Positions 1 to 33,385 of a DNA stretch of 64,000 nucleotides are shown here, one piece after another (position 1 is the stretch's first letter; the number at the start of each line of letters is the position of its first letter). Origin of the DNA: an uncultured bacterium (GTDB lineage: Bacteria; Patescibacteriota; Minisyncoccia; UBA6257; 2-01-FULL-56-20); the NCBI GenBank assembly GCA_963719425.1, contig OY970382.1, forward strand, positions 742,477 through 806,476, given 5' to 3'. Position numbers and translations under genes: made by a program. The notes below the pieces were generated by a model. It searched no databases. It was not told the DNA's origin and was given only the letters and a program-made list of their open reading frames with translations.

Positions 1-731
1 GCGACCACAAGGTAGTACGTCTCAAATCCACCGATACCGTCATCTTCTCCTCGTCGGTCGTGCCGGGAAACGAGCGGAGCGTGCAGGCGCTGCAGGACAA
101 CATTGCGCGGCAGGTGGACGAACTTTACAACGTAAAGATCCTGGACATCCACGCCTCGGGCCACGCGCATCAGGAGGACCTAAAGTTCGTGCTCCGGCTC
201 ATGAAACCGAAGTTTACTGTCCCGATTCACGGGTATTACTTTTTCCGTTCGGCGCTCAAAAAAATCGCGGTGGAAGTAGGCCTCCCCCGCGAAACGGTCA
301 AGATGATGGATAACGGGCAAGTGGCGGAAATTACAAAAGACACGTTTACGATAACCAAGCAGACCGTGCCCGCGTCGTATGTGATGGTGGACGGCTTGGG
401 CGTCGGCGACGTGGAAGAAGTGGTGCTCCGCGACCGGCGCGCGCTTTCTCAGGAAGGCATGGTTGTCATTATCCTCACTGTTGATCAAACCAAGGGGCGG
501 CTTCTCAAAAACCCTGACATCATCTCGCGCGGTTTTATCTATCTCAAGGAACATCAGGAGCTTCTGGAAGAAATTCGCAAACGCATCCGCGCGCTCATTA
601 CGCGCCTTCCCAGTTACCGCGAAGTGGAACCCGATTATCTAAAGACGCTCATCCGCGACCAAGTCGGACAGTTCCTCTATAACAAAACGCGGCGCCGGCC
701 GATGATCCTGCCCGTCATCATTGAGGTGTAG
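1..731 (+). CDS. rnj: Ribonuclease J, C-terminal part (5' end lies outside the window)
   Basis: The frame is open from nt 3. DTVIFSSSVVPGNE and SGHAHQEDLKFVLRLMKPKFTVPIHG match the RNase J beta-CASP/C-terminal region. Confidence 0.75.
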   Translation, partial: DHKVVRLKSTDTVIFSSSVVPGNERSVQALQDNIARQVDELYNVKILDIHASGHAHQEDLKFVLRLMKPKFTVPIHGYYFFRSALKKIAVEVGLPRETVKMMDNGQVAEITKDTFTITKQTVPASYVMVDGLGVGDVEEVVLRDRRALSQEGMVVIILTVDQTKGRLLKNPDIISRGFIYLKEHQELLEEIRKRIRALITRLPSYREVEPDYLKTLIRDQVGQFLYNKTRRRPMILPVIIEV

Positions 732-1812: not shown

Positions 1813-2127
1813 ATGGAAAGGGAAATTACTATCCAAGACCTTGTCACGTCCATTAAAGATCTTACCCACGCTGTATGGGACGGATTCGGTCTGGTGGATA
1901 AACGCTTTAGCGACGTTGAGCAACAACTCGAACGGCGATTTAACGCCGTAGATAACCGATTTTACGCGCTTGAAGCACGCGTTGACCAGATCAGTTTTAG
2001 CATCTCCCAAATACAAGACGATATGAAGGCGCTCAATGAAGAAATGCGCGGCATTCATAAAGTGATTGACAACCTGAATACTCGCCTTGTTCGCGCAGAG
2101 GGCGCGCTTGGCCTCGAGCGTGCCTAA
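1813..2127 (+). CDS. Hypothetical small coiled-coil protein
   Basis: 104-aa ORF between trpS and ileS. No recognisable motif. Confidence 0.35.
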   Translation: MEREITIQDLVTSIKDLTHAVWDGFGLVDKRFSDVEQQLERRFNAVDNRFYALEARVDQISFSISQIQDDMKALNEEMRGIHKVIDNLNTRLVRAEGALGLERA

Positions 2128-8721: not shown

Positions 8722-9060
8722 GGAGCTGATTATATCACGCAATCGCGCGGTTTTATCCACGTACCATCGTAGTCAAACGGGGGTTAAAATTCTGCCGAAT
8801 TGACAACGCCAAAGAACGAGTCCGGCGCAGCTATAAAACAGCAATTCCACATTTTTACTTCGGAGAGGTTCAATTACTCCTCCCGCTGTGTTTAAGCAGT
8901 CCACAACGTGCCGATTTAGCGCTTGTTGTCGAGAGGCACTCAACCTTTTATCGAGCAACGACGTGCCTGACCCTGGATATGGCGTATACGGATGCACGCC
9001 TGATCGCCAAACCTGATCGAGACTGGTTACAGCCCTAATTGAGGTCTTTGAATTCCGTAA

Positions 9061-9176
9061 GCGCCCTATCATGGAAATGAGTGGTCTTCGTTGGAACTCG
9101 GGGAATATTTGAGGGAATTGCCGAGGCTGATAAATAAGGTACCAGTCGTCATCCCATAGGACGTTCACGACGTGCA
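9061..9176. repeat. Direct repeat copy 1 (~105 bp)
   Basis: Shares a 34/35-nt core gagtggtcttcgttggaactcgg[g/t]gaatatttgag (9069..9103) with copy 2, and about 75% identity over ~105 bp. Confidence 0.7.
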
Positions 9177-9237
9177 TACGTTCATATGGTAGATGTAATG
9201 ATACGCTAGGACTTACTTGCATGGTAAAATTATAAAA

Positions 9238-10002
9238 ATGAAGCTGATTACGCTGAACATCTGGGGTGGCGCCCTCTACGAGCCGCTTGCTGCTTTCATC
9301 AAACACTGGTCTCCCGAGATAGACATATTTTGCTTCCAAGAGGTGCTGTTTGGCTCTACGCCGACATTCACGCCGGTCCACAAAGGCCGCAGTAATATTT
9401 TTTCGGAAATCTCCTCATGGCTCCCTGGCTTTGCTTCCTATCAGCACTTCGCACCCAGCACGCATTTTCAAACGGAGCCCATAGCATTTAGAGCCGGGCA
9501 AGCGATTTTCACAAAATCTTCGCTGGAGATAAGGAGTAACGGCGGATTTCTTTGCTATAAAGGAAAGCCCCCAATCGAAACCACGAAGGGAGGCAAACTG
9601 ACGGGAAACTGCCAATGGATTGATATTGCGGACGGCAACAGCGCCATCACCATCGCGAATTTGCACGGACTGTGGCAAGAGGGCAGCCACAAGGCAGATA
9701 CGCCAGAGCGACTCACTCAATCGCGCATAGTGAAACAATTTCTTGACGGAAGAACGGGAAAGAAAATTCTCTGTGGAGATTTCAATTTATTGCCTGACGG
9801 GCAGAGCATAAAAATCCTTGAGGACGGCATGAAAAACCTGATAAAGGACTATCAAATTCAATCTACGCGCAGTTCGCTTTATAAGAAAGAAATCAAATTT
9901 GCCAATTATATTTTGGTTTCTCCCGAGGTTAAGGTAAAAGATTTTAGGGTTTTGTCAGATGAAGTTTCCGATCATCTCCCGCTCTACTTGGAATTCAATT
10001 GA
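9238..10002 (+). CDS. Endonuclease/exonuclease/phosphatase (EEP) family protein
   Basis: MKLITLNIWGG ... FCFQEV ... SDHLPL motifs. The ORF-track start at 9217 is TTG; the ATG at 9238 is preferred. Confidence 0.75.
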   Translation: MKLITLNIWGGALYEPLAAFIKHWSPEIDIFCFQEVLFGSTPTFTPVHKGRSNIFSEISSWLPGFASYQHFAPSTHFQTEPIAFRAGQAIFTKSSLEIRSNGGFLCYKGKPPIETTKGGKLTGNCQWIDIADGNSAITIANLHGLWQEGSHKADTPERLTQSRIVKQFLDGRTGKKILCGDFNLLPDGQSIKILEDGMKNLIKDYQIQSTRSSLYKKEIKFANYILVSPEVKVKDFRVLSDEVSDHLPLYLEFN

Positions 10003-10033
10003 GGAATGAAATAAAACCATAGTAAGGCTCGGC

Positions 10034-10147
10034 GGTGGAGACGAGTGGTCTTCGTTGGAACTCGGTGAATATTTGAGAAAACTACCACAGCTGCTAAGTC
10101 GGGCACGGTCAGCATCCCGTAGGACGTGCACTACGTGCACAACGTTC
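10034..10147. repeat. Direct repeat copy 2 (~105 bp)
   Basis: Core at 10043..10077 is identical to copy 1 except for one base. The left end ggtggagacgagtgg matches the ssrA 3' terminus (ggtggagacgggcgg) at 13/15 positions. Confidence 0.7.
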
Positions 10148-10216
10148 ACGACATACACGAAGTTCACTCATCTTCCATCATTACTGTCATGCAATGTAAG
10201 ATGGTTTTCAAAGAAT

Positions 10217-11610
10217 TCACAAAACGAAGGCATCGGTTGAGCTTGCTGAGAAGAGTACGGTGGTGCTGGCCTGCGGATCATAAAGGTATAGGCTTCCGCC
10301 GCGCTGAAAAATCAATTTATCGTCCTGCGTCCATTGCAGAGGGGTGACAAGAGGAAAGGCCCGGTCTTCCCCATCGGCTTGATCCATTCCGAGGCTGAAA
10401 AATTTTTTATTTGCGGGATTAGATACCTCTACAACAAAATTTCCGCACTGCTGTTCCGAAGTGCAGCTGTCAAAGACGATGAATTTGTCATCAAGAGACC
10501 AAGTGGGAACACCTATTTCGTAAGGATTCTCGTACAAAGTCGTCGATGGATAAATAAGTAGCGTGAATGATTGATCGTGAGCCGGAACATTCCATAGGGC
10601 GAGTTGAGAGTCCGAAAAGACTTCGACGGCGGCGAGTTTGTCGCCCGCATGGTCAAGCTGTCCACTGTAAAGAGTGTTGTTATCAGGTATAGTCGCGAAT
10701 AATGTATCCTGACCCGTGATCGTATTCAAAACGTGGAATTCCCTTGAGTGTGGTTCCAGCACGTAGTAGGAAGGACTCCCCCAATCCTTATACGTGGGAT
10801 AAAGTATGGAGCGAACATACAAAATATGCGCACCGTCATTTTGGAGAAGACCGTAAATATGGGAGGTATCGCTTGCGATATTGAGCCATTGTCTGCCAAG
10901 CTGTAGTATGTTTCCGCGTCCATGATCGTCGTTGTTGGGGCTGTCGCAGCCGCCATTGATGAATCATATACGGCCCTCCAGGCTTCGTTCGCCCCTCCTA
11001 ATGTCACTGTCGGCGGTAATGGGTACGGCGGGGTAGATGTTGTCCGGAGATCTATAACATTTTGGAATTTGGGTATGTAAACAAGGTGATCCGAAAGCCA
11101 ATAATCGGCGTTAAGAAATTCACCCACAAAACTACCTGTGAGTGATCCCGTGTCTTTGAGGGTTTTCGTGATTCGACCGCCATTATTCAAATCCATAAAA
11201 CCTATATCGGTCTCTCCGTCGTGGCCCAACATATAATATTCCGAATAGGAAAAATTGGGAGAGATGGAATAGTAGAATACGGTTCCGCTGGTATGAGAAA
11301 GTTGCATGGGGTTGCTTCCGTCGTCGTTGGCGATCCACACTTCACCACCCTTTAAAAAGGCAACTTTGTTCTGAAATGTATTCGGTGCAACTGACGACTG
11401 GCTTATACCAATTGTAGTTGTAGACGTTGATGACGTAGATGCGGCAGCTGGTTGGGATAGCGATGCCGGCGGTGGCGGTGGTGAAGTGACCAGCGGAACC
11501 AATGGAGAGGTTGGCTTCTTTAGCGCGAAATATAAAATCCCGCCTCCCACTACCAACAGGACCGCAACGATGAGAATGATTATAATCGGCGCGAAGCCTC
11601 TTCGATTCAT
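10217..11610 (-). pseudogene. Membrane-anchored Pro-rich / beta-propeller (TolB-like) surface protein, interrupted by a frameshift near 10965
   Basis: Two overlapping minus-strand ORFs (10726..11610 and 10217..10822). Both frames read as plausible protein on either side of ~10965. N-terminal TM helix, PPPPP linker, and WIANDDGS / YLYDP beta-propeller-like repeats. Confidence 0.5.
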
Positions 11611-11890
11611 TGCTTTAATTATAACAAATCAGAAACGGTTCGATTCCACTCGTCTCTTAGATATTTTGGGTCAAAAAAAGAGAAAACGACGCTCTGCAAG
11701 CGCTGATTCTGCTGGAGTCCCGATATCAAATAACCGTGGACGCAACGGCACTGCCACCGAACTATTTGATGCTATAGCCGAGAACGCCGAAGCAATGCAG
11801 ACATGGAACGCATTCGCGCAAGCGTTCATGGCCCAGGAACGCAAAGAGGACGCTCTATCTGTAACGCTTTGAGGTTGGTATAATCAGGGC

Positions 11891-12193
11891 ATGATCAAGC
11901 GTAAAGACAACCTCACGGACATCGTTGAAGACCTCCAAAAGGATCGGGATAAAAAGCCGGAACCGAATCAGAAGCCCGAAAAGCCCGGCAAAAACGAATG
12001 GCAAGTCACGGATAACGAAGGAAACATCGTCACTTTGGGCCAAAAACCCGGGAGCCGCACAGCGTCATCTAATAAGGCAAATCCCGTTGAACTATCTCAA
12101 GACGTGATGGAGGCTATCAAGCAGGCGGTACAAACGGGCATCAAAGAAGCGTTTGAGAAGTGGGAGGAAAAACGGCGACGCGAAAAATCGTAA
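11891..12193 (+). CDS. Hypothetical protein (Lys/Glu-rich, 100 aa)
   Basis: ORF only. Lower-GC, phage-like context. Confidence 0.4.
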   Translation: MIKRKDNLTDIVEDLQKDRDKKPEPNQKPEKPGKNEWQVTDNEGNIVTLGQKPGSRTASSNKANPVELSQDVMEAIKQAVQTGIKEAFEKWEEKRRREKS

Positions 12194-12233
12194 TCAGCTG
12201 GAAGGTTGTCGCGAGCGAGGTGCTATGTCATAG

Positions 12234-12968
12234 TTGCAAAGAAACATGGCCATCACAAGAACGAGCCAGCTGCAAAAATGGATATTGGAAACATGCCTGG
12301 AAAAAGTGAGGTTCCAAAGAACGGATGCGCGGGCGTTCTTCGGCAAGCGATTTTCGCCAAGCTACCTCAAAGATAATCCCAAGCATCGCATTGGAGATTG
12401 GAAAATCAAAAAGTGGTATGACGGTGACATGAGCCTGTTCGAACGGCGGACTGAAACCGTCATGGAGTGGCGGCGAAAGCTACAGAAGCGCGTGCCGGTA
12501 ACCAAAATCTACTGCGTCCCCAAAAAAGAGCTCATCGCCACTCCGACCATCGAAGTCACGATCTCGCGCAGCCTGCACAACCTCGTGCGAAAGGACCTGC
12601 TTGAGCAGTCAAAGAAGTGGGGACCGTACACCCTGACCAAACGCGGATTCGAAACTGTTAAGAACAGTCCAGATAAGTGGACTGGTATTAGCTTTAAGGA
12701 ATATGAGGCAAAAGTAGAGGAAGCGCGAAAAGAGGAGGAAGGGTGGATGGCCGCAACGGTCGCCAAGCTGACGCCGCCATCCGCCCAGAAGCAGCGCAAG
12801 ACGCTTGAACTGCAAGCGAAGCTGCAGGACTTTAATAAGCGATTCAATCCGGCGACGATCCACGCGCGATTGTGTAGGAAATGCCAAAAGAAGATAGCCC
12901 GATTCGAAAAGGCGTCCGGAGCTACGGCGATTAAAAAGCTCCGGGATGAAATCAACCGCACAGAGTAA
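12234..12968 (+). CDS. Hypothetical protein, possible winged-helix DNA-binding
   Basis: 244-aa ORF. The segment RSLHNLVRKDLLEQSKKWGPYTLTKRG resembles a winged helix. Confidence 0.45.
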   Translation: MQRNMAITRTSQLQKWILETCLEKVRFQRTDARAFFGKRFSPSYLKDNPKHRIGDWKIKKWYDGDMSLFERRTETVMEWRRKLQKRVPVTKIYCVPKKELIATPTIEVTISRSLHNLVRKDLLEQSKKWGPYTLTKRGFETVKNSPDKWTGISFKEYEAKVEEARKEEEGWMAATVAKLTPPSAQKQRKTLELQAKLQDFNKRFNPATIHARLCRKCQKKIARFEKASGATAIKKLRDEINRTE

Positions 12969-13096
12969 ATGTTAATGAGTTTCTTCCGCGGATGAAACTC
13001 CTTAACAATAAGGATTGTGGCAAGCCATTGTATGGGTTACAATAAAAGTGTGAGACAGCCGAGCTGGCTCAAAAATAGGACGACGTAGGACGACGC

Positions 13097-13654
13097 ATGA
13101 AAATACTCCCCCAGCAGGAATATCATATCCGCCAAGTGATCCGCGACAATCTCGCGCTCAATCCCCTGATCTCAATCCGCAATCTCCAGAAGGTGGTTGA
13201 GTACAACACACATCGCCCGATCGGCGATAAGTATTTGATGCGGTTGCTTGGGAAGATCCGTGGCGAGGTTATTGCCCAAGCGGACCGGCAGGGAGTGGCC
13301 GAGCGGCTCACCGAAGTGAAGGAGCGCTTCCGGGTGTTGCGGAAAGAGTTGCTTCGCATCGTCTACTGGGAGATGAGATACTTCCCGGAGTATGGCATTG
13401 AACGGCCGAGTAGCCGCGACCGTATGAACGCCATAAAAACGATTGCCCAGATGGACCTCGCCCTCCTCAAAACCGAGCTTGATACCGGGATGTTCAGCAA
13501 AAAGCAGAACGACATTGAGGCATTGCTCAACGACCCCGCCTTGCCATCCGAACTGCACGAGCAAATCGTGGGCGTATTCAGGCAATGGAGGTTCTCGCGG
13601 CCTGAACGAACCGAGGCAAAAACAGCTCCGCAGATGGCTATTGTCAAAAACTGA
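13097..13654 (+). CDS. Hypothetical protein
   Basis: 185-aa ORF. No recognisable motif. Confidence 0.45.
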   Translation: MKILPQQEYHIRQVIRDNLALNPLISIRNLQKVVEYNTHRPIGDKYLMRLLGKIRGEVIAQADRQGVAERLTEVKERFRVLRKELLRIVYWEMRYFPEYGIERPSSRDRMNAIKTIAQMDLALLKTELDTGMFSKKQNDIEALLNDPALPSELHEQIVGVFRQWRFSRPERTEAKTAPQMAIVKN

Positions 13655-13703
13655 GAGGGCCGAGGGCGGCGAATAGGAGCCCATTGGGCACCGTTCGAGC
13701 CAC

Positions 13704-14066
13704 GTGGGGAGATTACGGGGATTGAGGGACCTTGTAGGGCGGGGAGAAAATCAAAGCAACCAGACAAAAACCATGAGATATTCAAAAGAACTTCGCGAGG
13801 AGTATAAGCGGACGGTCAAACTGGCCATGATGGCCGTGCCGTCCTTCATGGGGGAGGTCACGTTATACGAAATCAATGAGGCAATGCGGAAGGCTTACGG
13901 CGCCAGGTTCAATAAAAAATATCTGTCAAAGCTGAGGGATGAGCTGCAGGCAGAACAAGATCTGCTCGTGGAGAAGCTCTCGACTCCGGAAGGCAGGATG
14001 GAACTTATTGAGGAGCTGCAGGGAAGACTCGCCCTATTGGATGTGATGGCTCAAACGCTACAGTAG
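13704..14066 (+). CDS. Hypothetical protein
   Basis: 120-aa ORF. Confidence 0.4.
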   Translation: MGRLRGLRDLVGRGENQSNQTKTMRYSKELREEYKRTVKLAMMAVPSFMGEVTLYEINEAMRKAYGARFNKKYLSKLRDELQAEQDLLVEKLSTPEGRMELIEELQGRLALLDVMAQTLQ

Positions 14067-14181
14067 CAAATGAAAAAAAGCCCGGATTGCTTTCGCTTCA
14101 CGGGCTTGATGCCGTGGAGGGTTGCTTGGTCATGCTTATCCGACATGAAAAGAGGGCTGTTTCAGCAGCAAAAAATAGCCA

Positions 14182-14210
14182 TTGACACCAGAACTCTATT
14201 TTGGTAGAAT
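14182..14210 (+). promoter_or_regulatory. Near-consensus sigma70 promoter upstream of the DGR target gene
   Basis: TTGACA (14182..14187), 17-nt spacer, TGgTAGAAT extended -10 (14202..14210). Confidence 0.55.
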
Positions 14211-14340
14211 ATAGGGGTTCTTTAACAAGATAAAAATCAAGGTTTCAAACATACGCATGAGGCGAGTATTCAGCGGGCCGCGCAAGCCCTTTGAACACTC
14301 GTCTCATAACCTGAGCGGGTAGAAAAGGAGGATGATAACG

Positions 14341-15243
14341 ATGCCTACATCGATTACATCCAACATCACCGAAGGACAGAAGGAACTCTACGAGCGCGTC
14401 GTACGCGACGCTGCGAAACACGGCACCGCGCTTGCGCTCGAGAAGACCGGCGCAGACCAGGTTGGCTGGCAGCGCGTCATCGAAAACGGCGACGATCTCC
14501 GCGAAGCGATCGCGGCAACCATCGTGGCCAAAACCCTGGAGCTTTCAATCTCTAACCAGTTCGCCGACGAGGAAGTGGAGTCGAGCTACGGCTACCTGTC
14601 GGGCTATCGGAAGCCCAAGGGCGTCACCGAGCAGACGAACATCCTGCGTCAGCTTTTCCCCGGCGTCGGTTTCGCCGACGAGAAGATCGCGGAACAGCCG
14701 CTCCCGCCGAACACCGAAGGATGGTTCGCCATCCCGAAGTGGGAAACGATCGCCCCGACCTACGGCGAAGCGGTGCAGAAGGTGTTCGACATGATCAAGA
14801 AGACCCGAGGCGGCAAGTTCTACAACTGGCGCGAGGGCCAGCTTGGTCCGCAGTACCTTCGGCAATCCGCGAAGTCGGTCAAGGCGTTCCAGAAACTCGG
14901 CACCGAGCAGAAGGATCACGACATCCTCGTCGTTGCGGCGCAGTTCGGTCTACGTCACCGGGGCCGTTCGGTTCGCAGGGCGCGGGAAGTCATGAACGCA
15001 TCCGAGTTCGGTCTCGGTGCGTTCGCCATCGGGATCATGCTACTCACGCATCCCGAGCGTCTCAGGCACTATGACGATCTCTGGATCGACTGTGCCGGGG
15101 ACGAGTTCAGCTACGATGGCGATGGCCGGTTCGACAGCGCGCCGTTCTTCTACTTCGACGGCGTCGGGGTGAAGTTCGACGCGAGCGACGTTGCCTCTGC
15201 GCTCGCCCACTATGGCTCGGCGTCGGCTTCCGTTCCGCAGTAG
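14341..15243 (+). CDS. DGR target (variable) protein with a C-terminal variable repeat
   Basis: Strong SD AAGGAGG at 14325..14331. The last ~43 codons form the VR. No obvious signal peptide. Confidence 0.8.
   Translation: MPTSITSNITEGQKELYERVVRDAAKHGTALALEKTGADQVGWQRVIENGDDLREAIAATIVAKTLELSISNQFADEEVESSYGYLSGYRKPKGVTEQTNILRQLFPGVGFADEKIAEQPLPPNTEGWFAIPKWETIAPTYGEAVQKVFDMIKKTRGGKFYNWREGQLGPQYLRQSAKSVKAFQKLGTEQKDHDILVVAAQFGLRHRGRSVRRAREVMNASEFGLGAFAIGIMLLTHPERLRHYDDLWIDCAGDEFSYDGDGRFDSAPFFYFDGVGVKFDASDVASALAHYGSASASVPQ
15111..15240 (+). other. DGR variable repeat (VR)
   Basis: 130 bp, 111/130 identical to TR. All 19 mismatches correspond to A in TR. Confidence 0.85.
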
Positions 15244-15326
15244 ATTGAACCTTGATTGCTCGAGTGCTTGGGTCTTTTGATCCTCTTATCTTCTTGATCC
15301 CTTGCATTCGCGCGATTTTTTCCACA

Positions 15327-15357
15327 GGGGCTTCCGCACCATCATCGCGGCAGCCCC
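15327..15357 (+). promoter_or_regulatory. Hairpin downstream of VR (candidate DGR homing-associated stem-loop)
   Basis: ggggcttccgc / gcggcagcccc is an 11-bp stem with one mismatch and a 9-nt loop, ~85 bp 3' of VR. Confidence 0.45.
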
Positions 15358-15670
15358 TTTCTCTTTTCAGCTTCACAAAAAACATTTCCATTTATATACT
15401 TACAAGCGAGCATAGGCTAATGCACGGCCGTCCACGGATTGCCGTCGCCGAACTCTCTCTTCAAAAAAGAGATCCACAGCCAGAGTCCGGACGGTCACGG
15501 CTTTCCGGAGCGTGCTGCCTTGAGGAGATTACTGCTTGCCCCTGCCTTGTGCGGGTGTCCCGCGAGCGCGGGGCTGCTGCCGAATAAAATACAGGAATGA
15601 GAGGATATAGTTCCGCTGCCAGTGGGAAGTAACCCTCGAGATCCGGTGACGCGGACGGGCGGGAGCAATA

Positions 15671-15800
15671 CTACGATGGCGATGGCCGGTTCGACAACGC
15701 GCCGTACTTCAACTTCAACGACGACAAGGTGAAGTTCGACACGAACGACGTTGACAATGCGAACGACAACTATGGCTCGGCGTCGGCATCCGTTCCGAAG
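15671..15800 (+). repeat. DGR template repeat (TR)
   Basis: Non-coding copy of VR, same orientation. Adenine-rich, with AAC codons in the VR frame. Confidence 0.85.
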
Positions 15801-15814
15801 TTCCTCCTCAAGTG

Positions 15815-15840
15815 AAATGCCCCCTTCAGCGGGGGCATTT
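15815..15840 (+). promoter_or_regulatory. Perfect 10-bp hairpin immediately 3' of TR
   Basis: aaatgccccc-ttcagc-gggggcattt, placed between the TR end and the avd stop. Confidence 0.4.
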
Positions 15841-15842
15841 CT

Positions 15843-16190
15843 TTACTGTTTCACTGATCGTATCCACCCGCCGAGCATCCTGCCGATCTCGTCGATTGGA
15901 GCTTGGAGCGCGAGATACTTCTTTCCGTCGATGCCTCTTGTCTCGTGCATGAGACGGATGAAAACGCGAAGGAAGTTGAGTTTCACGCTCGCCCTCTCAA
16001 GCACCGGCAGCTTCTCGCTCTTGGACATCTGGCTGGCAGCCATGATGCCCTCAAGCACGTCGAGGATCATCGCGTCGCACCGTTGCCAGATGGTATAGCG
16101 GTCCTGCTTCGACATCGTGTTGCGATAGCTGTAAAACAGCTTGTAGAGATCGCAGGTCTTCTTGAAGATGGGAACATCAAAATCATCCAT
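15843..16190 (-). CDS. avd: Avd-like accessory variability determinant (four-helix-bundle / 23S rRNA IVS protein family)
   Basis: 115 aa. The C-terminal ...PIDEIGRMLGGWIRSVKQ resembles the Bordetella phage Avd C-terminus (EVGRILGSWIARVNRKGQ). Confidence 0.8.
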   Translation of the reverse strand: MDDFDVPIFKKTCDLYKLFYSYRNTMSKQDRYTIWQRCDAMILDVLEGIMAASQMSKSEKLPVLERASVKLNFLRVFIRLMHETRGIDGKKYLALQAPIDEIGRMLGGWIRSVKQ

Positions 16191-16198
16191 TAGCTTTT

Positions 16199-17239
16199 AT
16201 GAAGGTTTATAAAAACGCATTCGACCGTATTGCGTCTCTCGAAAATCTCTTTGCTGCGTGGAACGCCTTCAAGGGAAACAAGCGGAACAAGGATGACGTG
16301 CAGCAGTTTGAGCGGCACCTTGAGCAAAACATTTTCCAGCTGCATCGTGATCTCACGAGTGGGTCGTACCGGCACGGCCCGTATTACGGTTTCTACATTC
16401 ACGACCCCAAGCAGAGGCACATCCACAAAGCGTCCGTAAGAGACAGGGTTTTGCATCACGCGGTCGTATCGGTGATCAACCCAATGTTCGAGGAGGCCTT
16501 TATCCCATCCTCCTTCTCGTGCCGCGTTGGATTTGGCACGCACAAGGGCGTCGATGTCCTCGAAGAAATGGCACGGGCGGCGGCGGAGAACGGCACCGCA
16601 CCATGCTTCATTTTGAAATGCGATGTTCGGAAGTTCTTTGACAGCGTTGACCATGACGTCCTGCTCGGCATTTTGGGAAAGCGCATCAAGGACGATGCCA
16701 CGATAAATCTCATCACAGAAATCGTCGAGAGCTTCTCATCTTCCCGATCAAGCCTATTTGATCGCAAAGGGCTGCCGATCGGCAACCTCACGTCGCAGCT
16801 TTTCGCGAACACTTACATGAACGAGTTCGACCAGTTCATAAAACACGACCTCAAGGTGAAGCAGTACGCCCGTTACACGGACGACTTCGCCATCGTCGCA
16901 TCCGATCGCGCGTACTTGGAGAACCTGATCGAGCCGATCTCCCGCTTCCTGAATGACCGGCTTGCGCTTGAGCTGCATCCGAAAAAAATATCTATCGGGA
17001 AGCTGCATAATGGCATCGACTTCCTCGGATACGTCATGTTCCCGAGACATCGGCTTGTCCGGGCCAAAACGCGCCGCCGGATGTTCGCGAAGTTCGCGGC
17101 GAAGATAGCGGCGGTCCGCAGCGGAAGCATTTCCGAGGACTCTCTTATCGCTTCGCTCCGGTCATATCTCGGCGTCTTGTCGCACGCGGATGCGCATCGA
17201 TTGTCGGAGGACCTGAAGAACGGACTATGGTTCAACTAA
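16199..17239 (+). CDS. DGR reverse transcriptase
   Basis: 346 aa. LPIGNLTSQLFAN is the DGR-specific motif-4 signature, and YTDDF is the catalytic box. Confidence 0.9.
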   Translation: MKVYKNAFDRIASLENLFAAWNAFKGNKRNKDDVQQFERHLEQNIFQLHRDLTSGSYRHGPYYGFYIHDPKQRHIHKASVRDRVLHHAVVSVINPMFEEAFIPSSFSCRVGFGTHKGVDVLEEMARAAAENGTAPCFILKCDVRKFFDSVDHDVLLGILGKRIKDDATINLITEIVESFSSSRSSLFDRKGLPIGNLTSQLFANTYMNEFDQFIKHDLKVKQYARYTDDFAIVASDRAYLENLIEPISRFLNDRLALELHPKKISIGKLHNGIDFLGYVMFPRHRLVRAKTRRRMFAKFAAKIAAVRSGSISEDSLIASLRSYLGVLSHADAHRLSEDLKNGLWFN

Positions 17240-17248
17240 TGCCCGGCC

Positions 17249-17947
17249 TCAATACCACTTCGCCACGCCTCCGTGATGCGAACACGCGCCGCTGTGGGTT
17301 TTGCTGTAGCTGTATGATCCGTCGCGGCAGAGCGCGGTAGCACCGGTAGGCACGCCTGCATTGGTCTTGATCGTCGGAGTAACCGTCGTTGTCTTGGGTT
17401 TCGGAACCGCCTTCGCACCCGCCGCCATCATCGCGGAATAGTATTTGAGCCAGTTGCTTGAAATCTCCGCTTGGGCATCGCTCAAAGACATCTTTCCGCT
17501 GCATACCTGTGTGTGCAGATAGTTCTCGAACTTATCCTTGATCAAAGAACCGTTTGCAATCAACGAGGACTCCGGCCAGAGGTTTGCGATGGCGTTGCTG
17601 CCGCCAAGTTCCAAGCTGATAAGATGATCCACCTCGTAGTTGGCGTGGAGCTTGTATGCGATGCCGTATTCGGCGAACACCTGCTTACTCTCCGAAAGCG
17701 GGACGTTACGGACGGTCTTCGTGTAACCCACGGTGCACACCGTTGCAGTGTTGGTCGTGAGCACCGCCCCAGGCGTGCAGCCGGAGTCCGGCAACACTTG
17801 GTTCCCGACGCACTGCGACGTTTTCGTCTGCACGCCATAGGCGGCGAGTGAAGGCAACGCGCTCGCAGCGAGCATGAGTGCGGCGAGGGCGAAAACTGAC
17901 GTTTTCATGCTCATGAGGGTCATTGAATGTTGACCAACGTGTTGCAC
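17249..17947 (-). CDS. Secreted protein with HNH-like nuclease motif and C-terminal DUF3761-like Cys motif
   Basis: Signal peptide MKTSVFALAALMLAASALPSLAA. EVDHLISLELGGSN is HNH-like. C-terminal CRDGSYSYSKTHSGACSHHGGVAKW. The true start may be at 17908. Confidence 0.55.
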   Translation of the reverse strand: MQHVGQHSMTLMSMKTSVFALAALMLAASALPSLAAYGVQTKTSQCVGNQVLPDSGCTPGAVLTTNTATVCTVGYTKTVRNVPLSESKQVFAEYGIAYKLHANYEVDHLISLELGGSNAIANLWPESSLIANGSLIKDKFENYLHTQVCSGKMSLSDAQAEISSNWLKYYSAMMAAGAKAVPKPKTTTVTPTIKTNAGVPTGATALCRDGSYSYSKTHSGACSHHGGVAKWY

Positions 17948-19119
17948 GCGTCGTTGCCAGTCCCGCCCTCAATGATGCCCTGCTGCTTCAGGAAATCGCA
18001 GAGCGTGGACTGGTCAAATCCCGACCAGTTGATCTTCTGGTAGGTGTCCTTGTCCATTCCGTAGATCAGCACGGGAGTGTTGTTGTGCTGATTCCCGTAC
18101 GCGTCCGTTGTCTGGCCATCATATTCGACAAGAACATCGTAAGCATTATTGCCGGACGAGTATACGGTTTGGAATAGCTGAGCCGAGAGCTTGTTGGTCA
18201 CGTCGAGCAACGCGCTCTTGTCCAAGAAGTTCCCGACGTTCACGAAGACGGTGATCCCGGTCGTTCCCGCTGGCCGGTCCGGATCGGCAGCGTTTATTCG
18301 CAGATCCCCATAGTCCGCCTGAATGCCGCCGCCGAGCTTGGATATGTTGCCTTGAACGTTGTGCTTCAGCGCCTGTTGCGTTTGAAGAACCTGCTGCGCC
18401 CCCTGAAAGGTTTGGTCCGCAAGCGTTTGCTGTTCCTGCTTTATCGCAGCGGCTTGTGAGGTGGTGATCGCCGGAGATGCCTTGATCAAATCCAGCGCTT
18501 GGCTCTCGTCGCTGTTGCCCTGCTCAATGGAAGTGAATGCCGCGTTCGCCGCATCGGGATCAAGGAAGGAGAAACCGCCCTTCGGCACGGCGACATTGAT
18601 CGCCGCGACCAAGGCGTTGATGCCGCTTATCTGACTTGAAACTGCCTGATTGAGCAAGCTGTCTGCCTGCGACAAGTCGGAGGGGGCTTGGCCGTTCAGC
18701 GATTGGATGTTTTTCTGGGCCTGCGAGAAGTCGGCCTGCGCTTCGGTCTCGCTCGCGGTTACGAGGTCTTCAAGGTATTGTCCGCCGTAGATCGCCAGCG
18801 TGGGATCGCGCATGTCCTTCTGCGCTTTCTGGATGGCGGGTATCACGTTCGTCTGAACGGAGTTTATGTAATCCGCATCCGACAACTTGGGGCCGGAGTT
18901 GGTTGCGTTGGTAGTTTGCGCGGGGTTTGAAGCGACCGGGGTACCAGCTGGCGCGGTCGGACTGGTGATGCCGACGAGGACAAAGAACACGACTATCGCA
19001 CCGCCGAAGATCATGCCTACGCGTTTGCGCGAAGGCATTTTGATCCAAGATGGCTTTATGAGGCCAACGATAAGGCCAAGGAAAGAAACGAGGAGAAGAA
19101 CAATAAAGAAATCGTTCAT
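17920..19119 (-). CDS. Hypothetical membrane-anchored Gln/Ala/Ser-rich protein
   Basis: The likely start is MNDFFIVLLLVSFLGLIVGLI (ATG at 19119). The ORF-track extension to 19218 is probably readthrough. Confidence 0.5.
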   Translation of the reverse strand: MNDFFIVLLLVSFLGLIVGLIKPSWIKMPSRKRVGMIFGGAIVVFFVLVGITSPTAPAGTPVASNPAQTTNATNSGPKLSDADYINSVQTNVIPAIQKAQKDMRDPTLAIYGGQYLEDLVTASETEAQADFSQAQKNIQSLNGQAPSDLSQADSLLNQAVSSQISGINALVAAINVAVPKGGFSFLDPDAANAAFTSIEQGNSDESQALDLIKASPAITTSQAAAIKQEQQTLADQTFQGAQQVLQTQQALKHNVQGNISKLGGGIQADYGDLRINAADPDRPAGTTGITVFVNVGNFLDKSALLDVTNKLSAQLFQTVYSSGNNAYDVLVEYDGQTTDAYGNQHNNTPVLIYGMDKDTYQKINWSGFDQSTLCDFLKQQGIIEGGTGNDACNTLVNIQ

Positions 19120-19439
19120 GGTTGTGTGGTTGGTTGAAAAAACAAACGCCCCTCGCGCGGAGGAGCTTTCATCGACCAAAAAGCCCACCACGTGGGTGAG
19201 GGCTTTCGCCCTCCACACCGGTTTCCCGATGTGGCTGATCAGAGCAATCCCACATGATGGGGTTTTTAGCTCTGATCAGACTTCTTGTGCCATGCCGGGC
19301 ATTGCTGTCACGGTTTAGGCTACTGATTAAGTTGTGATTAGATATTACAATACTCCGGAGCATTTGCGAAGCATCGCCGATTTTGAAGCTACAGGAGCCC
19401 CCCTCAACTCTTCGAGGATAATCCGGTATAGTTCAGAAT

Positions 19440-21095
19440 ATGGCAACGCCAACAAATCCCGAGGAACTGCTTGAGGCACTTCGCCCATTGCAGATTAATG
19501 AAGACGAGGATGAGGAAAAGCGGCGAAAATGGCGTTACGTGATATACGCGAGAAAATCTACCGACGACAAGGACAAGCAAGTCCGTTCGCTCCCAGATCA
19601 GGTGCACGATTGTCAGGAGTTCGCGGCGGAACACAATCTCCATGTTGGTCTCAAGGACATCATCCAAGAAGCCGAATCGGCGAAAGAACCCGACATCCGG
19701 CCGAAGTTCCGTGCGATGATCGAAGATGTAAAGCGCGGGAAGTATGACGGCATCATCGCGTGGCATCCCGACCGGCTCGCGCGCAACATGAAAGACGCTG
19801 GTGAAATCATTGACCTCATCGACAAGCATATTATAAAAGACCTCCAGTTCAAGAGTTTCACGTTCACGAATGATCCAAGCGGCAAGATGCTACTCGGCAT
19901 CACCTTTGTTCTCGCAAAACAGTATTCCGAACAACTCGGCGTGAGCATCTCGCGCGGCAACCGACGGAGCATCGAGGAGGGGAAATATGTTGGCCGCACA
20001 AAGCACGGCTATTACAAAGACTCCGACCAATATCTCCGACCGGATGGTCAGAACTTCATCCTGATCAAAAACGCATTCCGGATGCGCATTGGGGGCTCGA
20101 CCTACGAACAAATCGCTGATTACCTCAACGCAAATGGGTATCAGCATGCACGGCGCGACGGCACTCACGTTCTGTTCAAAATGAATCTCAAGCGGGTTGA
20201 GAACTTCATGCGAGACACCGTCTATAGCGGAGTCATTGTGTACGGCAAGAAAGGCGGGGCCGTGAACCTCACAAAAATATACGACTTTCAACCAGCGATC
20301 AGCGTGCCGGATTTCATGAAAATCTATCACCTCGACAAAAAGGGATTCATGCGTCTTGCGAGAAAAAATCGACGCCAAGAAGATATAAAAGCAAGCCTCC
20401 TGCGAGGCATAGTGATTTGCGCGGCATGCGATGAGGTAATGTCGGCTGGCATCACACCAAAGCAAAACAAGGGAAGAGTCACACGATATTTTTACTACCG
20501 CTGCGACAATGAGGATTGTTCACGACACGACAAGTCGGTGCGGGCAAAGGTAATCTTGGATTACGCGAAGGAGTTCCTTGAAAAGAAACCATTCTCCTCG
20601 AGAAAGGCCTACAATCACTATGCCGAAGAAATGCCGCGGGTGGCGGCAGAGCGCGAGCGCGAAACGCGACTTCTTCTCGCAGGACAGAAAAATAGGAAGC
20701 TCCACCTCGAGAACAAGTTGGCCAAGCTGGAAGAGGGCCTCATGTACGAGGAAGACGAGGGTATAAAGGCTCTCTATCGCCGGGACAAGCCGACAGTGGA
20801 GGGCGATGTTAGAGGGGTTGATGCAGAAATCGACAGGCTTGAGGGCAAACTGAAGGCCGGAAAGACGGCCATACTCACATACACGGAGTTTCTCGAACTA
20901 ATGGAGAAAATGGGGGAAATGCTGACCTCCAAGACACCCATGAAGGATTTGGACGCGATCATCAGAAAAGTGTTCTCGAACTTTACCGTAAGCGCAAAAA
21001 AGGTAGAGAAATGGAGCCTTGCCGCGCCATTTGATGCGCTTTACGACCCCAAAATGACGAATGGTGGAGACGGGCGGAATCGAACCGCCGTGTAA
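19440..21095 (+). CDS. Large serine recombinase (phage-type serine integrase)
   Basis: 551 aa. YARKSTDDKDKQVRSLPDQ resolvase catalytic motif, recombinase domain, Cys zinc ribbon (CAACDEV...YYRCDNEDC), C-terminal coiled coil. Confidence 0.85.
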   Translation: MATPTNPEELLEALRPLQINEDEDEEKRRKWRYVIYARKSTDDKDKQVRSLPDQVHDCQEFAAEHNLHVGLKDIIQEAESAKEPDIRPKFRAMIEDVKRGKYDGIIAWHPDRLARNMKDAGEIIDLIDKHIIKDLQFKSFTFTNDPSGKMLLGITFVLAKQYSEQLGVSISRGNRRSIEEGKYVGRTKHGYYKDSDQYLRPDGQNFILIKNAFRMRIGGSTYEQIADYLNANGYQHARRDGTHVLFKMNLKRVENFMRDTVYSGVIVYGKKGGAVNLTKIYDFQPAISVPDFMKIYHLDKKGFMRLARKNRRQEDIKASLLRGIVICAACDEVMSAGITPKQNKGRVTRYFYYRCDNEDCSRHDKSVRAKVILDYAKEFLEKKPFSSRKAYNHYAEEMPRVAAERERETRLLLAGQKNRKLHLENKLAKLEEGLMYEEDEGIKALYRRDKPTVEGDVRGVDAEIDRLEGKLKAGKTAILTYTEFLELMEKMGEMLTSKTPMKDLDAIIRKVFSNFTVSAKKVEKWSLAAPFDALYDPKMTNGGDGRNRTAV

Positions 21096-21377
21096 AGGTA
21101 ATGCGCGTGGGCCGTCTACGGGCGTGTCTAGTGGAACACTAGCAACGCGATCCTAGTTTTCGCGCGCGGTATAGGATCATCCGCCGCGGCTAGTCCCCTT
21201 ATATAAGACCGGCTGTGAGCCCAAGGAACCCGGACTCGCCGATCCCGGCATTACGCGTAAGCGAACGCCGGAGCTGTAACTCTATTAGAGTTGGCAGTTA
21301 TGTTTTGTGCGGCAGTTACGTCGTCGCCCTCGGCCCGCAAACCCACTGCTTGCCCTTATCAAAGCCAGTGCGTCCCC
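21062..21377 (-). ncRNA. ssrA: Probable tmRNA (ssrA)
   Basis: 3' end GGCGG-UUCGAUU-CCGCC CGUCUCC A CCA (T-arm, acceptor, CCA). 5' GGGGACG pairs with it 316 nt upstream. CUGGCUUUGAUAAGGG resembles the conserved tmRNA 5' motif. Internal tag ORF GCC AAC ... = ANSNRVTAPAFAYA then UAA. Confidence 0.55.
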
Positions 21378-31173: not shown

Positions 31174-31319
31174 GGCAATCCTCCAGTCTTTGCATGCAGC
31201 GGAATTTGAAAACCAAATCTGAACAAATTATAGCATTTATACGCCTATTTTGTCAAGCATATTTCTTTCGGACAGGTAAGGACGAGAACATTGTCCAAAC
31301 CAAGGTATAATAAGCACAA

Positions 31320-33343: not shown

Positions 33344-33385
33344 CTGGCCTCTATCCCGAAGCAGTCAATAATATACCCTATTTTG

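Follow-up and report, generated by a model that had tools for sequence, protein, structure and literature searches.

We identified a segment of about 11 kb (~10043-21071 of the window, the 64,000-nt stretch of DNA analysed here) that is very probably an integrative element, placed at the 3' end of ssrA by its own large serine integrase. The initial annotation had proposed an element integrated at ssrA, bounded at one end by a recombinase gene and at the other by a partial direct copy of the tmRNA end. Our analysis supports this proposal, and none of its three refutation tests (conserved synteny, a non-significant distal repeat, a coincidental overlap) went against it. The right-hand end of the element is defined by the following features:

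21062-21377, minus strand: ssrA (tmRNA), the putative integration target (ARAGORN, tag ANSNRVTAPAFAYA*; Rfam RF00023, 102 bits, full length)
21062-21064, 21065, 21066-21072, 21073-21077 and 21078-21084: CCA, discriminator, acceptor 3' strand, T-stem and T-loop of ssrA
19440-21095, plus strand: large serine recombinase (LSR, integrase) gene, 551 aa, C-terminus NGGDGRNRTAV*
21040-21090, plus strand: proximal, attL-type junction (homology to relatives from 21063/21064; logo of 53 junctions; symmetry centre)

The integrase ORF is intact and encodes Resolvase (7e-23), Recombinase (2e-7) and Zn_ribbon_recom (3e-6) Pfam domains. The protein matches the PHROG 95 integrase (5e-62), SPbeta SprA and TP901-1 Int are the closest among solved structures, and its catalytic Ser40 and four zinc-ribbon cysteines are invariant in an alignment of 40 sequences. 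The stop codon (TAA) lies at 21093-21095. As had been noted earlier along with the C-terminus, and as the sequence confirms, the final 34 nt of the ORF (21062-21095) correspond, in reverse complement, to the tmRNA 3' end: the CCA, discriminator, acceptor strand and T-arm, plus a few more bases.

Such an overlap is typical of the family: at 60 of 71 informative loci, the LSR ORF runs into the 3' end of a tRNA or tmRNA gene convergent with it. The loci were sampled through a pattern-based pre-filter and are phylogenetically non-independent, several Saccharibacteria loci being closely related. The overlap loci represent 14 tRNA types plus tmRNA, mostly in Patescibacteria. The tRNA end is preceded, at a distance of 35-38 or 47 nt, by a conserved PF motif, and the C-terminal tails of 120 LSR homologues resemble translated tRNA T-arms. 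CCA is encoded in 50 of 56 LSR-adjacent tRNAs, compared with 52 of 83 other tRNAs at the same loci; it is also encoded in the window tmRNA, whereas the tmRNA of LSR-less relatives has no encoded CCA. The LSR belongs to a large family, apparently undescribed, whose targets are tRNA and tmRNA genes.

The distal end of the element is marked by two overlapping features:

10024-10061, plus strand: distal, attR-type junction: outside flank, then the shared block GGTGGAGACG (10034-10043) and, at 10044-10061, the P arm
10033-10149, plus strand: repeat R2, ~115 nt, the left island terminus (blastn and MAFFT against copies in the window, L083, L088 and L111)

The distal sequence cggtggagacgagtgg (10033-10048) does match tggtggagacgggcgg, but at 13 of 16 positions instead of the 13 of 15 first reported. 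The match includes 10 contiguous nt of the acceptor/CCA segment (10034-10043, equal to 21063-21072). By itself this 10-mer is not significant, because similar-length matches occur by chance at most LSR loci: exact 9-11-nt tRNA-end matches in the 10 kb upstream are common to most of them, and the window even has a 12-nt inverted match. The site is nevertheless significant under an attR model derived from the family. Distal island ends share a layout of (T)GG, a copy of the discriminator and acceptor, and then a T-loop-like YGAAC exactly 5 bp farther out than its tRNA position. Of the 129 acceptor-like hits found upstream of LSR genes, 10 have AAC at +16..18, compared with ~2 at other offsets and 3 in an inverted control. 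Nine of these 10 sites are preceded by (T)GG, although the search did not require it, and six (L013, L017, L022, L028, L041 and L045) are independent of the forming of the hypothesis. Sites with the attR layout were predicted, and then found, in L108, L088, L111 and L083, and unrelated genomes show the layout at other tRNA genes too. The pattern TGGAGACG-N15-AAC has a single match in the window (10036-10061), on the expected strand and side, where shuffles predict 0.02.

The candidate distal att site of the initial annotation, weak as a 10-mer, fits the attR layout of independent islands and heads the ~115-nt repeat R2. R2 consists of the P arm and ~90 nt with 9-nt tandem NACGTNCAC units, and no convincing RNA structure was found in it. 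The repeat family is confined to this variable region, in four lineages. Genomes of Patescibacteria are gene-dense and 10-nt matches arise at chance level, so that the recombinase/ssrA overlap and the distal 10-mer could be coincidental products of a compact genome. Such a coincidence is extremely improbable given the recurrence of the overlap across the family at 15 different RNA genes, the expectation of the site model and the restriction of the repeat to this locus.

The two junctions show the half-site geometry known for attP versus attB of serine integrases. At the attL-type junction, the P' arm lies within the integrase 3' coding end (up to 21061) and is followed by the shared block (21063-21072) and a B arm formed by the tmRNA T-arm, in which 21082-21085 read GAAC. 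The P arm of the attR-type site has GGAAC at 10057-10061, 5 bp farther from the acceptor than the tmRNA GAAC. This outward shift fits the published rule that serine-integrase attP and attB half-sites share an outer motif offset by 5 bp (PMC3783163). Across the family, a conserved AWTTC in the P' arm mirrors the outer motif, and the centre falls on the last two acceptor base pairs; the window P' arm agrees only partly with this consensus. The symmetry centre lies on CG, and a palindromic central dinucleotide is unusual for a serine integrase. We infer a crossover at ~21070-21072, a position uncertain by about 1 bp.

We propose that the element would circularize with an attP of two halves. The P' half would lie within the ~35 nt that end the integrase coding sequence, where the CCA, discriminator and acceptor strand of the tmRNA are copied; the P half would be formed by the initial ~20 nt of repeat R. 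The integrase would pair attP with attB, the tmRNA 3' end. In the attB half-site, the T-loop TCGAAC may serve as the outer motif, the one read by the zinc-ribbon domain; the same motif lies 5 bp farther out in the P arm. Strand exchange would take place among the innermost acceptor base pairs. The tmRNA would then be completed by the copy that the element brings in, so that ssrA would still be functional, and the original tmRNA end would be displaced to the far side (10034-10043). After integration, the integrase reading frame would end within the tmRNA T-arm. The element may still be able to move, to be excised and to pass from cell to cell.

Related genomes show that the window carries inserted DNA at this position. 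The gene order IleRS-ArgRS-SmpB-(Maf)-variable region-tmRNA-bPH-IF3-L20 is kept in five related lineages, and the DNA between the tmRNA 3' end and Maf/SmpB differs in each of them. The first conserved chromosomal gene leftward is:

8146-8760, minus strand: maf (Pfam Maf, 3e-56; blastn)

Nucleotide homology between the window and its relatives stops at 8741-8746 and restarts at 21063/21064 (blastn). The right-hand break is base-exact at the tmRNA terminus in all lineages; from 21063 on, the tmRNAs of the window and L088 are 94% identical. The intervening DNA is unrelated and measures 5.2 kb in L083-L087 (93% identity to the window in flanking proteins), 3.6 kb in L088 (90%), 7.7 kb in L111 (77%) and 2.8 kb in L109 (76%). 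The enclosed genes are therefore not conserved neighbours of ssrA. Relatives with ssrA directly adjoining maf/smpB had been anticipated, but none of those compared has an unoccupied site, which always holds other DNA. We saw neither an excised circle nor an empty attB, and no polymorphism at 10034; a Logan contig (L082, run ERR10755942, probably from the source genome's own project) spans 10034 unbroken and is collinear with the window.

An interval that is never empty and differs in every relative could also be a 'replacement' flexible region, swapped by homologous recombination in its flanks, with the recombinase as a passenger or relic. R repeats persist even in LSR-less relatives and one cargo gene is broken, as this explanation would have it. 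Homologous exchange would leave the family-wide overlap of ORF and tRNA unexplained, however, and the base-exact right-hand break, the intact integrase ORF with every conserved residue and the attR layout at other tRNA genes in unrelated genomes also speak against it. We consider replacement quite unlikely and favour integrase-mediated insertion.

At other loci, islands of similar size lie between longer direct repeats of the tRNA or tmRNA end (18 nt and 8.5 kb in L058; 14 nt and 9.1 kb in L056). L015 has both a 9.7-kb island bounded by a longer direct repeat of the RNA end and a tandem junction, and L107 has tandem LSR islands at tmRNA. In the window, the left boundary placed near 10033 holds as the island end, but the variable block reaches ~8747 and includes a separate cassette (9072-10032) bounded by R1 and R2:

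9072-9188, plus strand: repeat R1, a second, more decayed copy, 79% identical to R2 in alignment
9238-10002, plus strand: endonuclease/exonuclease/phosphatase-family (EEP) gene (Pfam PF03372, 1e-9), the sole gene of the cassette

R1 contains an acceptor-like GGAAATG (9073-9079) and GGAAC (9093-9097), and marks the left end of an older cassette. No homology to the EEP gene was found at the same locus in relatives; a homologue with 32% identity lies inside another LSR island (L013). In our reading, earlier insertions at this site left behind both the R1-EEP cassette and the segments that R repeats bound in relatives. To our knowledge, canonical serine integrases do not recombine attP with attL, and tandem insertion beside an occupied site for this reason counts against the model.

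The island contains the following cargo genes and other features:

10217-11610, minus strand: surface/secreted protein gene in two overlapping ORFs (10726-11610 and 10217-10822)
11636-11672, plus strand: inverted, degenerate copy of the integrase-3'-end/tmRNA-3'-end junction (reverse complement GACCCAAAATATCTAA-GAGACGAGTGGAATCGAACCG)
11891-12193, 12234-12968, 13097-13654 and 13704-14066, plus strand: four hypothetical genes
14332-17239, plus strand: complete DGR (Pfam RVT_1, 1e-23; bAvd, 2e-15)
14332-15243: DGR target gene, with VR at 15111-15241
15671-15801: DGR TR
15843-16190, minus strand: bAvd
16199-17239: DGR reverse transcriptase
17249-17947, minus strand: secreted DUF3761 protein gene (Pfam PF12587, 1e-14)
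17920-19218, minus strand: membrane-anchored protein gene, probable start 19119 (ORF list; gene call on L001)
19198-19321, minus strand: LOOT RNA motif (RF03000; Rfam, 86 bits), leader of the membrane-protein gene

With the recombinase, this content agrees with the original description of a split surface gene, a DGR, a membrane protein and no obvious housekeeping genes; we found no housekeeping gene within the island. Two labels changed: the four hypothetical genes called 'phage-like' have no match in PHROGs, Pfam or NCBIfam, and the gene called HNH/DUF3761 keeps its DUF3761 assignment, while Pfam detects no HNH domain at E<0.01. Among the hypothetical proteins, one of 185 aa has a 31%-identical homologue in a related island (L020) and one of 100 aa has a homologue in L002; the four genes are candidates for regulation or excision functions. 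In the DGR, 19 of 19 TR/VR differences fall at TR adenines. The membrane-protein gene is divergent from the integrase gene, and a homologue occupies the same position in L020. The LOOT motif lies 118 nt upstream of the integrase start. Of 8 related LSR islands, 4 have the motif too, and in each case the gene that follows ~60 nt downstream encodes a protein whose N-terminus contains a transmembrane helix. No excision factor and no replication, packaging or transfer genes were recognised in the island.

The island could instead be a defective prophage or phage satellite that uses its DGR to switch phage tropism, as Bordetella phage BPP-1 does. The PHROG 95 match would fit such an origin, as would two related LSRs (35% identity) that adjoin tRNA-Gly in IMG/VR 'viral' contigs and the weak match of the membrane protein N-terminus to two PHROGs of unknown function. 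We regard it as unlikely, as Pfam, PHROGs and NCBIfam reveal no capsid, portal, terminase, tail or lysis genes, the element is just 11 kb, related LSR islands span 4-11 kb with unrelated cargo, and the other 80 islands sampled contain no DGR.

The split surface gene has no family match in Pfam, PHROGs or NCBIfam, and its sequence is also present in L082. The division of this cargo gene into two ORFs and an identity block of just 10 nt were both counted against the integration model. The inverted junction-like remnant reveals a more complicated history for the island's left part. Together with the attR-type site (10034-10061), it brackets exactly the split gene, an arrangement in which the recombinase might, besides or instead of integrating the element, act as an invertase that flips the 10.04-11.66 kb segment. 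This is very improbable: the right-hand site is without 5 core nt (TGGTG) and diverges in both arms, and no alternative orientation was seen, L082 having that of the window.

Targeting of tRNA and tmRNA genes by serine integrases is almost unreported. Mageeney et al. (2020) described t(m)RNA gene use by a serine integrase as not previously reported, with 14 of 297 cases in their study, and SopEphi as usually residing in the Salmonella tmRNA gene (PMC7192596). The integrative element resembles tRNA/tmRNA islands of the Islander/TIGER class in that the integrase gene adjoins the 3' end of an RNA gene, the element restores that end, a partial direct copy marks the far boundary, and tandem arrays and accessory cargo occur. 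Those islands use tyrosine recombinases, however, whereas the window enzyme is a serine recombinase with an identity block of ~10 nt, two-fold half-sites of the serine type and no need for arm-type sites.

In staphylococci, the Ccr large serine recombinases of SCC (SCCmec) elements insert cassettes into the 3' end of a housekeeping gene (rlmH) that is not inactivated. SCC elements have short direct repeats at their bounds and accumulate in tandem, and some are without their own recombinase. The island shares with them LSR insertion at the 3' end of a conserved gene without inactivation, the short repeats and the tandems. It differs in its RNA-gene target, its Patescibacteria hosts and a recombinase gene that spans the junction; the LSR is not a Ccr orthologue and matches CcrB (NCBIfam) distantly (1.5e-20; 73 bits, where the cut-off is 900).

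Phage serine integrases (A118/LI, Bxb1, phiC31, TP901-1 and SPbeta SprA) have the same domain set, with SprA and TP901-1 Int as distant sequence matches, and the same 5-bp offset of the attB/attP outer motif (PMC3783163). They target protein-coding genes or intergenic sites, whereas the attB outer motif in the window is the universally conserved tRNA T-loop and the coding end of the integrase itself contains the P' half-site. Finally, by their element features, Prochlorococcus tycheposons are likewise small cargo elements that pile up beside tRNA/tmRNA genes to form variable islands. Their host belongs to a different phylum, many have replication genes, of which the window island has none that we found, and nearly all use tyrosine recombinases, with a large serine recombinase in 27 of 937 (Hackl et al., bioRxiv 10.1101/2020.12.28.424599).

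We identified a full-length tmRNA gene (ssrA), on which ARAGORN and Rfam agree, and a large serine recombinase (LSR) gene that runs into it from the opposite strand. The encoded 551-aa protein has the three LSR domains recognized by Pfam (Resolvase, Recombinase and recombinase zinc ribbon) and ends in NGGDGRNRTAV followed by the stop codon. The last 34 nt of the gene are the reverse complement of the tmRNA 3' end. ARAGORN, Rfam and the ORF sequence thus confirm both the C-terminus and the overlap reported in the initial annotation. As in Islander-type genomic islands, the integrase gene adjoins an intact tmRNA gene.

Recombinase gene, tmRNA gene and tmRNA elements inside the overlap
19440-21095, forward strand: LSR gene
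21062-21377, reverse strand: tmRNA gene
21062-21064, reverse strand: CCA
21065, reverse strand: discriminator
21066-21072, reverse strand: acceptor strand
21073-21077, reverse strand: T-stem
21078-21084, reverse strand: T-loop

The Resolvase catalytic domain (residues 34-183) matches Pfam at 7e-23, and Y36, R38 and the nucleophilic serine S40 are invariant across 40 homologues. The C-terminal Recombinase (PF07508, 2e-7) and zinc ribbon (PF13408, 3e-6) domains both exceed their gathering scores, and zinc-ribbon cysteines C327, C330, C355 and C360 are invariant in the 40-homologue alignment. Residues ~400-480, a candidate region for the coiled-coil motif that is inserted in the zinc-ribbon domain of serine integrases and controls directionality, abound in charged heptad-like sequence. 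The serine family is the only recombinase type at the locus: no further integrase ORF is present within 8.7-21.1 kb, and tblastn found no second recombinase copy within the window (best E 0.15).

Using the bacterial-PH-domain (bPH) membrane protein encoded beside ssrA as a query, we identified homologues at 93, 90, 77 and 76% identity, on contigs L083-L087, L088, L111 and L109, respectively. All of these relatives have a common frame, IleRS-ArgRS-SmpB-(Maf)-X-tmRNA-bPH-IF3-L35-L20-NUDIX/PolX-Clp, in which segment X differs per lineage.

Segment X between the SmpB/Maf side and the tmRNA gene
Window: 12.3 kb, LSR island and EEP (endonuclease/exonuclease/phosphatase-family) cassette
L083: 5.2 kb, small ORFs
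L088: 3.6 kb, including an IS481-type transposase
L111: 7.7 kb, other genes
L109: 2.8 kb, one large gene

At the nucleotide level, homology with the window breaks off at 8741-8746, at the start of maf, and restarts at 21063/21064, within the last tmRNA bases. On its right, the variable DNA stops at exactly the base where the tmRNA gene ends. The variable segments have no protein-level similarity between lineages. Together with the homology break, this shows that the enclosed genes are not conserved neighbours of ssrA, and a synteny comparison across four lineages with 76-93% flank-protein identity therefore upholds the proposal that they were inserted. The island is absent at the same site in these relatives, as expected of Islander-type islands, and the site is filled by other DNA; no empty site was found among L083-L087, L088, L109 and L111. 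The window tmRNA encodes its CCA, and the tmRNAs of L083 and L088, relatives that have no LSR, do not. Exact-protein look-ups of SmpB, L20, the bPH protein and Maf returned no match, probably owing to differing start-codon calls. The isoleucyl-tRNA synthetase of the left flank (2124-5687, reverse strand, 1187 aa) contains an inserted histidine-phosphatase (His_Phos_1) domain, a fusion that is also present in the relatives.

With the recombinase and the EEP protein as queries, look-ups recovered only two Logan contigs, both from run ERR10755942 and both identical to the window: L001 (window 16781-21092) and L082 (window 8236-14951), which crosses 10034 without a break. The ends of these contigs fall 30 nt into the tmRNA gene, within the reverse transcriptase gene of the DGR, where the variable-repeat region begins, and within maf; at such points, k-mers are shared with other genomes or repeats in the sample. 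We considered the end of L001 in the tmRNA gene as evidence of excision and rejected it, as it is expected if another genome in the sample shares the tmRNA end.

The recombinase belongs to a large family. We identified 1596 homologues below E 1e-10 among the candidates scored. Those listed are 46-64% identical and, where named, come from Parcubacteria, Paceibacterota or other Patescibacteria. Their C-terminal tails resemble translated tRNA T-arms (for example GETRTP or RTRTCD...LYQLS), and the tails of the closest homologues carry GDG, corresponding to the tmRNA acceptor GGAGACG. In species-representative genomes, at least 599 stretches encode a relative (tblastn E<=1e-3); the best 80 loci and the window make up a set of 81, of which 71 were informative. 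In 60 of these 71, a convergent tRNA or tmRNA gene shares its 3'-terminal 7-124 nt with the LSR ORF, and the targets comprise 14 tRNA types and tmRNA. The ORFs encode a conserved PF motif at a distance of 35-38 or 47 nt from the tRNA end, on its near side, so the last conserved residues of the enzyme are encoded by junction-adjacent DNA. CCA is encoded in 50 of 56 LSR-adjacent tRNAs, compared with 52 of 83 other tRNAs of the same loci.

A few of the LSR-tRNA loci (L016, L031, L061, L067 and others) derive from bins assigned to Gammaproteobacteria, Muribaculaceae or Elusimicrobiota; the family may extend beyond Patescibacteria, or else these contigs are mis-binned. A scan of viral contigs found related integrases only in integrated form beside tRNA-Gly, and no genome in attP form.

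The initial annotation proposed a partial copy of the tmRNA end, cggtggagacgagtgg at 10033-10048, as the distal att site. Of its 16 positions, 13 match the tmRNA end, including a contiguous run of 10. The direct copy (10034-10043, equal to 21063-21072) lies 11.0 kb away and resembles the far fragment of Islander-type islands, though short. Exact matches of 9-11 nt are usual between an adjacent tRNA 3' end and the 10 kb upstream of related recombinase genes, and the window also holds a 12-nt inverted match to the tmRNA end. On its own, then, the distal match is not beyond chance; it is significant only with a family site model, and its significance stems from the comparison of relatives, the repeat that the site heads (R, below), the overlap seen across the recombinase family and the layout of the att sites.

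That layout was approached through far-side repeats. Direct repeats of at least 13 nt of the tRNA end occur in 5 of 45 loci and in 0 of 45 inverted controls, a modest signal, and the long exact-repeat search was replaced by an anchored acceptor-plus-motif test. A T-loop-like AAC 16-18 nt past the acceptor copy was first noticed in the window and in three other islands, and then tested on all loci.

Islands with far-side repeats of the RNA-gene end
L058: tmRNA, 18-nt direct repeat, island of 8.5 kb
L056: tRNA-His, 14-nt direct repeat, island of 9.1 kb
L015: tRNA-Gly, ~50 nt comprising a second integrase 3' end and tRNA end (tandem junction), island of 9.7 kb

The anchored test took all matches to a discriminator-plus-acceptor 8-mer in the DNA upstream of LSR genes, allowing up to one mismatch. 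AAC occurs at +16..18 in 10 of 129 direct matches, compared with ~2 at other offsets and 3 in the inverted control. (T)GG, which was not a search requirement, precedes 9 of the 10 AAC sites. The motif at +14..18 in those sites is TGAAC, CGAAC, TAAAC, CAAAC or GGAAC. The same motif, the reverse complement of the T-loop, is found at +9..13 in the tRNA itself, and in the far-side arm the motif thus lies exactly 5 bp further out. The window, eight other islands and later-predicted sites all have this arrangement, in which YGAAC spans +9..13 from the acceptor end in the tRNA arm and +14..18 in the distal arm. In the Listeria A118-type integrase, the motif bound by the zinc-ribbon domain is 5 bp nearer the centre in attB than in attP (Rutherford et al. 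2013, PMC3783163). By this rule, the tRNA arm behaves as a B-type half-site and the left end of the island as a P-type half-site.

In a logo of 53 proximal junctions, A-W-T-T-C is conserved on the integrase side, at positions -10..-6 relative to the CCA triplet. This motif and the P-arm GAA are mirror images whose centre falls within the two innermost base pairs of the acceptor segment, which places the crossover at ~21070-21072 and 10041-10043, with an uncertainty of 1 bp. The symmetry of the window site alone (ACGAA/TTCGT around AC) is centred 1 bp away from that of the family. The window has a single occurrence of TGGAGACG-N15-AAC, at 10036-10061, where 0.02 would be expected. The site model also predicted sites that were then found in L088, L111 and L083, and in L108, 8.2 kb from the tmRNA of a locus whose LSR is 60% identical to that of the window. 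The distal copy thus fits the family model as an att site, although its 10-nt match taken alone is at chance level. Islands implied by the att sites measure 4-11 kb. If the element excises, its attP junction would read ...GACCCCAAAATGACGAATGGTGGAGACG joined to AGTGGTCTTCGTTGGAACTCGGTG..., and the restored chromosomal site would read ...AAGGCTCGGCGGTGGAGACG joined to GGCGGAATCGAACCGCC....

Gene content between the two sites and on their flanks
Left flank: housekeeping genes for IleRS, ArgRS, SmpB and Maf
10217-11610, reverse strand: surface-protein gene split into two overlapping ORFs
Between the sites: four hypothetical genes
14332-17239, forward strand: diversity-generating retroelement (DGR; target gene, template repeat and reverse transcriptase), complete
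15843-16190, reverse strand: bAvd gene of the DGR
Between the sites: DUF3761 protein gene
Between the sites: membrane-protein gene with a LOOT RNA motif ahead of its start
19440-21095, forward strand: recombinase gene
Right flank: bPH membrane protein, IF3, L20, NUDIX protein, PolX and Clp ATPase

The DGR has a reverse transcriptase, an accessory Avd and a template/variable repeat pair in which 19 of 19 differences fall at template adenines; from this pattern it appears to be active. Avd is usually encoded on the same strand as the rest of a DGR, and the window bAvd differs in strand. Searches of Pfam, PHROGs and NCBIfam detected no virion structural, packaging, lysis, replication or conjugation gene in the island, which distinguishes it from a prophage, and no match for its hypothetical proteins. 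Only three of these proteins (100-aa, 185-aa and membrane) have homologues in other LSR islands, as does the EEP protein of the neighbouring cassette. The 100-, 120- and 185-aa proteins are the foremost candidates for an excision factor. The closest island is L020, from an Adlerbacteria genome, which has in common the membrane protein, the 185-aa protein and the LOOT motif; its truncated LSR is 69% identical to that of the window. Cargo of the other islands is otherwise unrelated bar a few common small genes, and a DGR is present in no other sampled island.

LOOT RNA motifs (RF03000) in LSR islands
Window: 19198-19321, reverse strand
L003: 5405-5525
L020: 9670-9796
L004: 7986-8105
L002: 8880-8998

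LOOT was detected in five of the nine closest LSR islands examined. It always precedes, by ~60 nt, a gene whose product has a single N-terminal transmembrane helix, and in three islands the integrase gene, on the opposite strand, has it immediately upstream. It looks like a leader element of an island-borne membrane-protein gene.

The two ORFs of the surface-protein gene are in different frames. Logan contig L082 has the same sequence, and its run is probably of the same project as the source genome, so it does not confirm the split independently. Repeat R2 and an inverted, degenerate junction of integrase 3' end and tmRNA 3' end (11636-11672, forward strand) bracket this gene. The junction retains 12 exact bases of the T-loop region and 7 more matching bases, with a 5-nt deletion in the CCA region, and may have been left by an old inversion or by a second element that has since decayed. 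Elsewhere in the window, a low-GC block (0.39-0.45) with small forward-strand ORFs at 31200-33460 adjoins the 3' end of a tRNA-Arg(ccg) gene at 33386. It contains no recombinase and no attR-type site, and may be another old insertion.

The distal site forms the opening part of a ~115-nt repeat, R, which has two copies in the window (R1, 9072-9188; R2, 10033-10149). Further copies occur in L083 (two full and two partial), L088 (one) and L111 (two), every one inside the variable segment and in one common orientation. The copies open with an acceptor-like heptamer, GGAGACG in R2 and the decayed GGAAACG or GGAAATG elsewhere, after which comes the conserved AGTGGTCTTCGTTGGAACTCGG. The 3' part of R contains three to five tandem 9-nt units, NACGTNCAC, which may be protein-binding sites. 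We rejected R as a structured RNA, as its consensus fold is weak (-14 kcal/mol) and without covariation, and no Rfam match was obtained at E<=1. A single metagenome scan with the R core matched two contigs only, both of the L083-type relative, so R is lineage-restricted.

R1 and R2 bracket one gene, encoding the EEP protein (9238-10002), a homologue of which lies inside another LSR island, L013. In our reading, R1-EEP is an older cassette that has no recombinase. In L083, L088 and L111, recombinase-free segments of 0.8-1.8 kb bounded by R form small arrays beside the tmRNA gene. Locus L107 contains two different LSR genes in series ahead of tmRNA-bPH-IF3.

LSR and tmRNA genes of L107
10001-11845: outer LSR gene, 614 aa, 64% identical to that of the window
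18611-20131: inner LSR gene, stops 9 nt before the tmRNA
20140-20457: tmRNA gene

The outer protein reaches 614 aa because its ORF reads through the GGTGGAGA core into the next element. L107, the tandem junction of L015 and the R-bounded cassettes together show that a single RNA gene can gather several elements. With canonical serine integrases, attP does not recombine with a site that is already occupied.

The variable block of the window is thus composite, made up of 8747-9071, the R1-EEP cassette (9072-10032) and the island (~10043-21071). We consider it very probable that the island is an LSR-integrated element. The initial proposal of an ssrA-integrated mobile island bounded by the recombinase gene stands in its observation and its reading; it needs amending in that the block is composite, and neither an excised form nor an empty site was seen.

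The wider result is a serine-integrase family that targets tRNA and tmRNA 3' ends with a recognisable site grammar. A more specific reading, which we favour slightly, is a Patescibacteria-wide LSR clade specialised on tRNA and tmRNA genes, in which half of attP lies in the integrase's own 3' coding end, the invariant T-loop serves as the outer motif of attB and specificity comes from the variable acceptor stem. If so, retargeting between tRNAs would be easy, and small cargo cassettes, some recombinase-less, could stack at one RNA gene, like SCC at rlmH. With an attB made of a universal motif plus a short variable segment, nearly every genome could be expected to offer natural landing sites. 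Serine integrases are preferred tools for large-DNA insertion and Patescibacteria are very hard to manipulate; integrases of this kind could give a route to genetic tools for them. The island also indicates that small integrative elements can transport a DGR, a hypermutation device common in Patescibacteria.

Genomic islands located at tRNA and tmRNA genes are textbook knowledge and are ascribed to tyrosine integrases, the recombinase type of nearly all described Islander-type islands, in place of which the window has only a serine recombinase. A previous analysis assigned t(m)RNA targets to 44.5% of tyrosine-integrase elements and to 14 of 297 serine-integrase elements, and noted that such use by serine integrases 'has not been reported previously' and needed proof (Mageeney et al. 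2020, PMC7192596). Among tycheposons, 27 of 937 elements have an LSR at tRNA/tmRNA islands (bioRxiv 10.1101/2020.12.28.424599), and the word tRNA is absent from a 2022 survey of thousands of serine integrases. We found no account of Patescibacteria/CPR serine integrases at tRNA genes in the open-access literature; an earlier description is possible. Our data point to a large clade in which tRNA/tmRNA targeting is the rule, and because an unrelated enzyme family has reached the same target, they reopen the question of why tRNA genes attract integrases. The window recombinase is not of the Ccr family of SCC elements (NCBIfam CcrB, 73 bits against a cut-off of 900; CcrA, 42 against 700), but insertion at the 3' end of a conserved gene and tandem cassettes with short repeats (R1-EEP; L083, L088 and L111; L107) are features that this locus and its relatives share with SCC.
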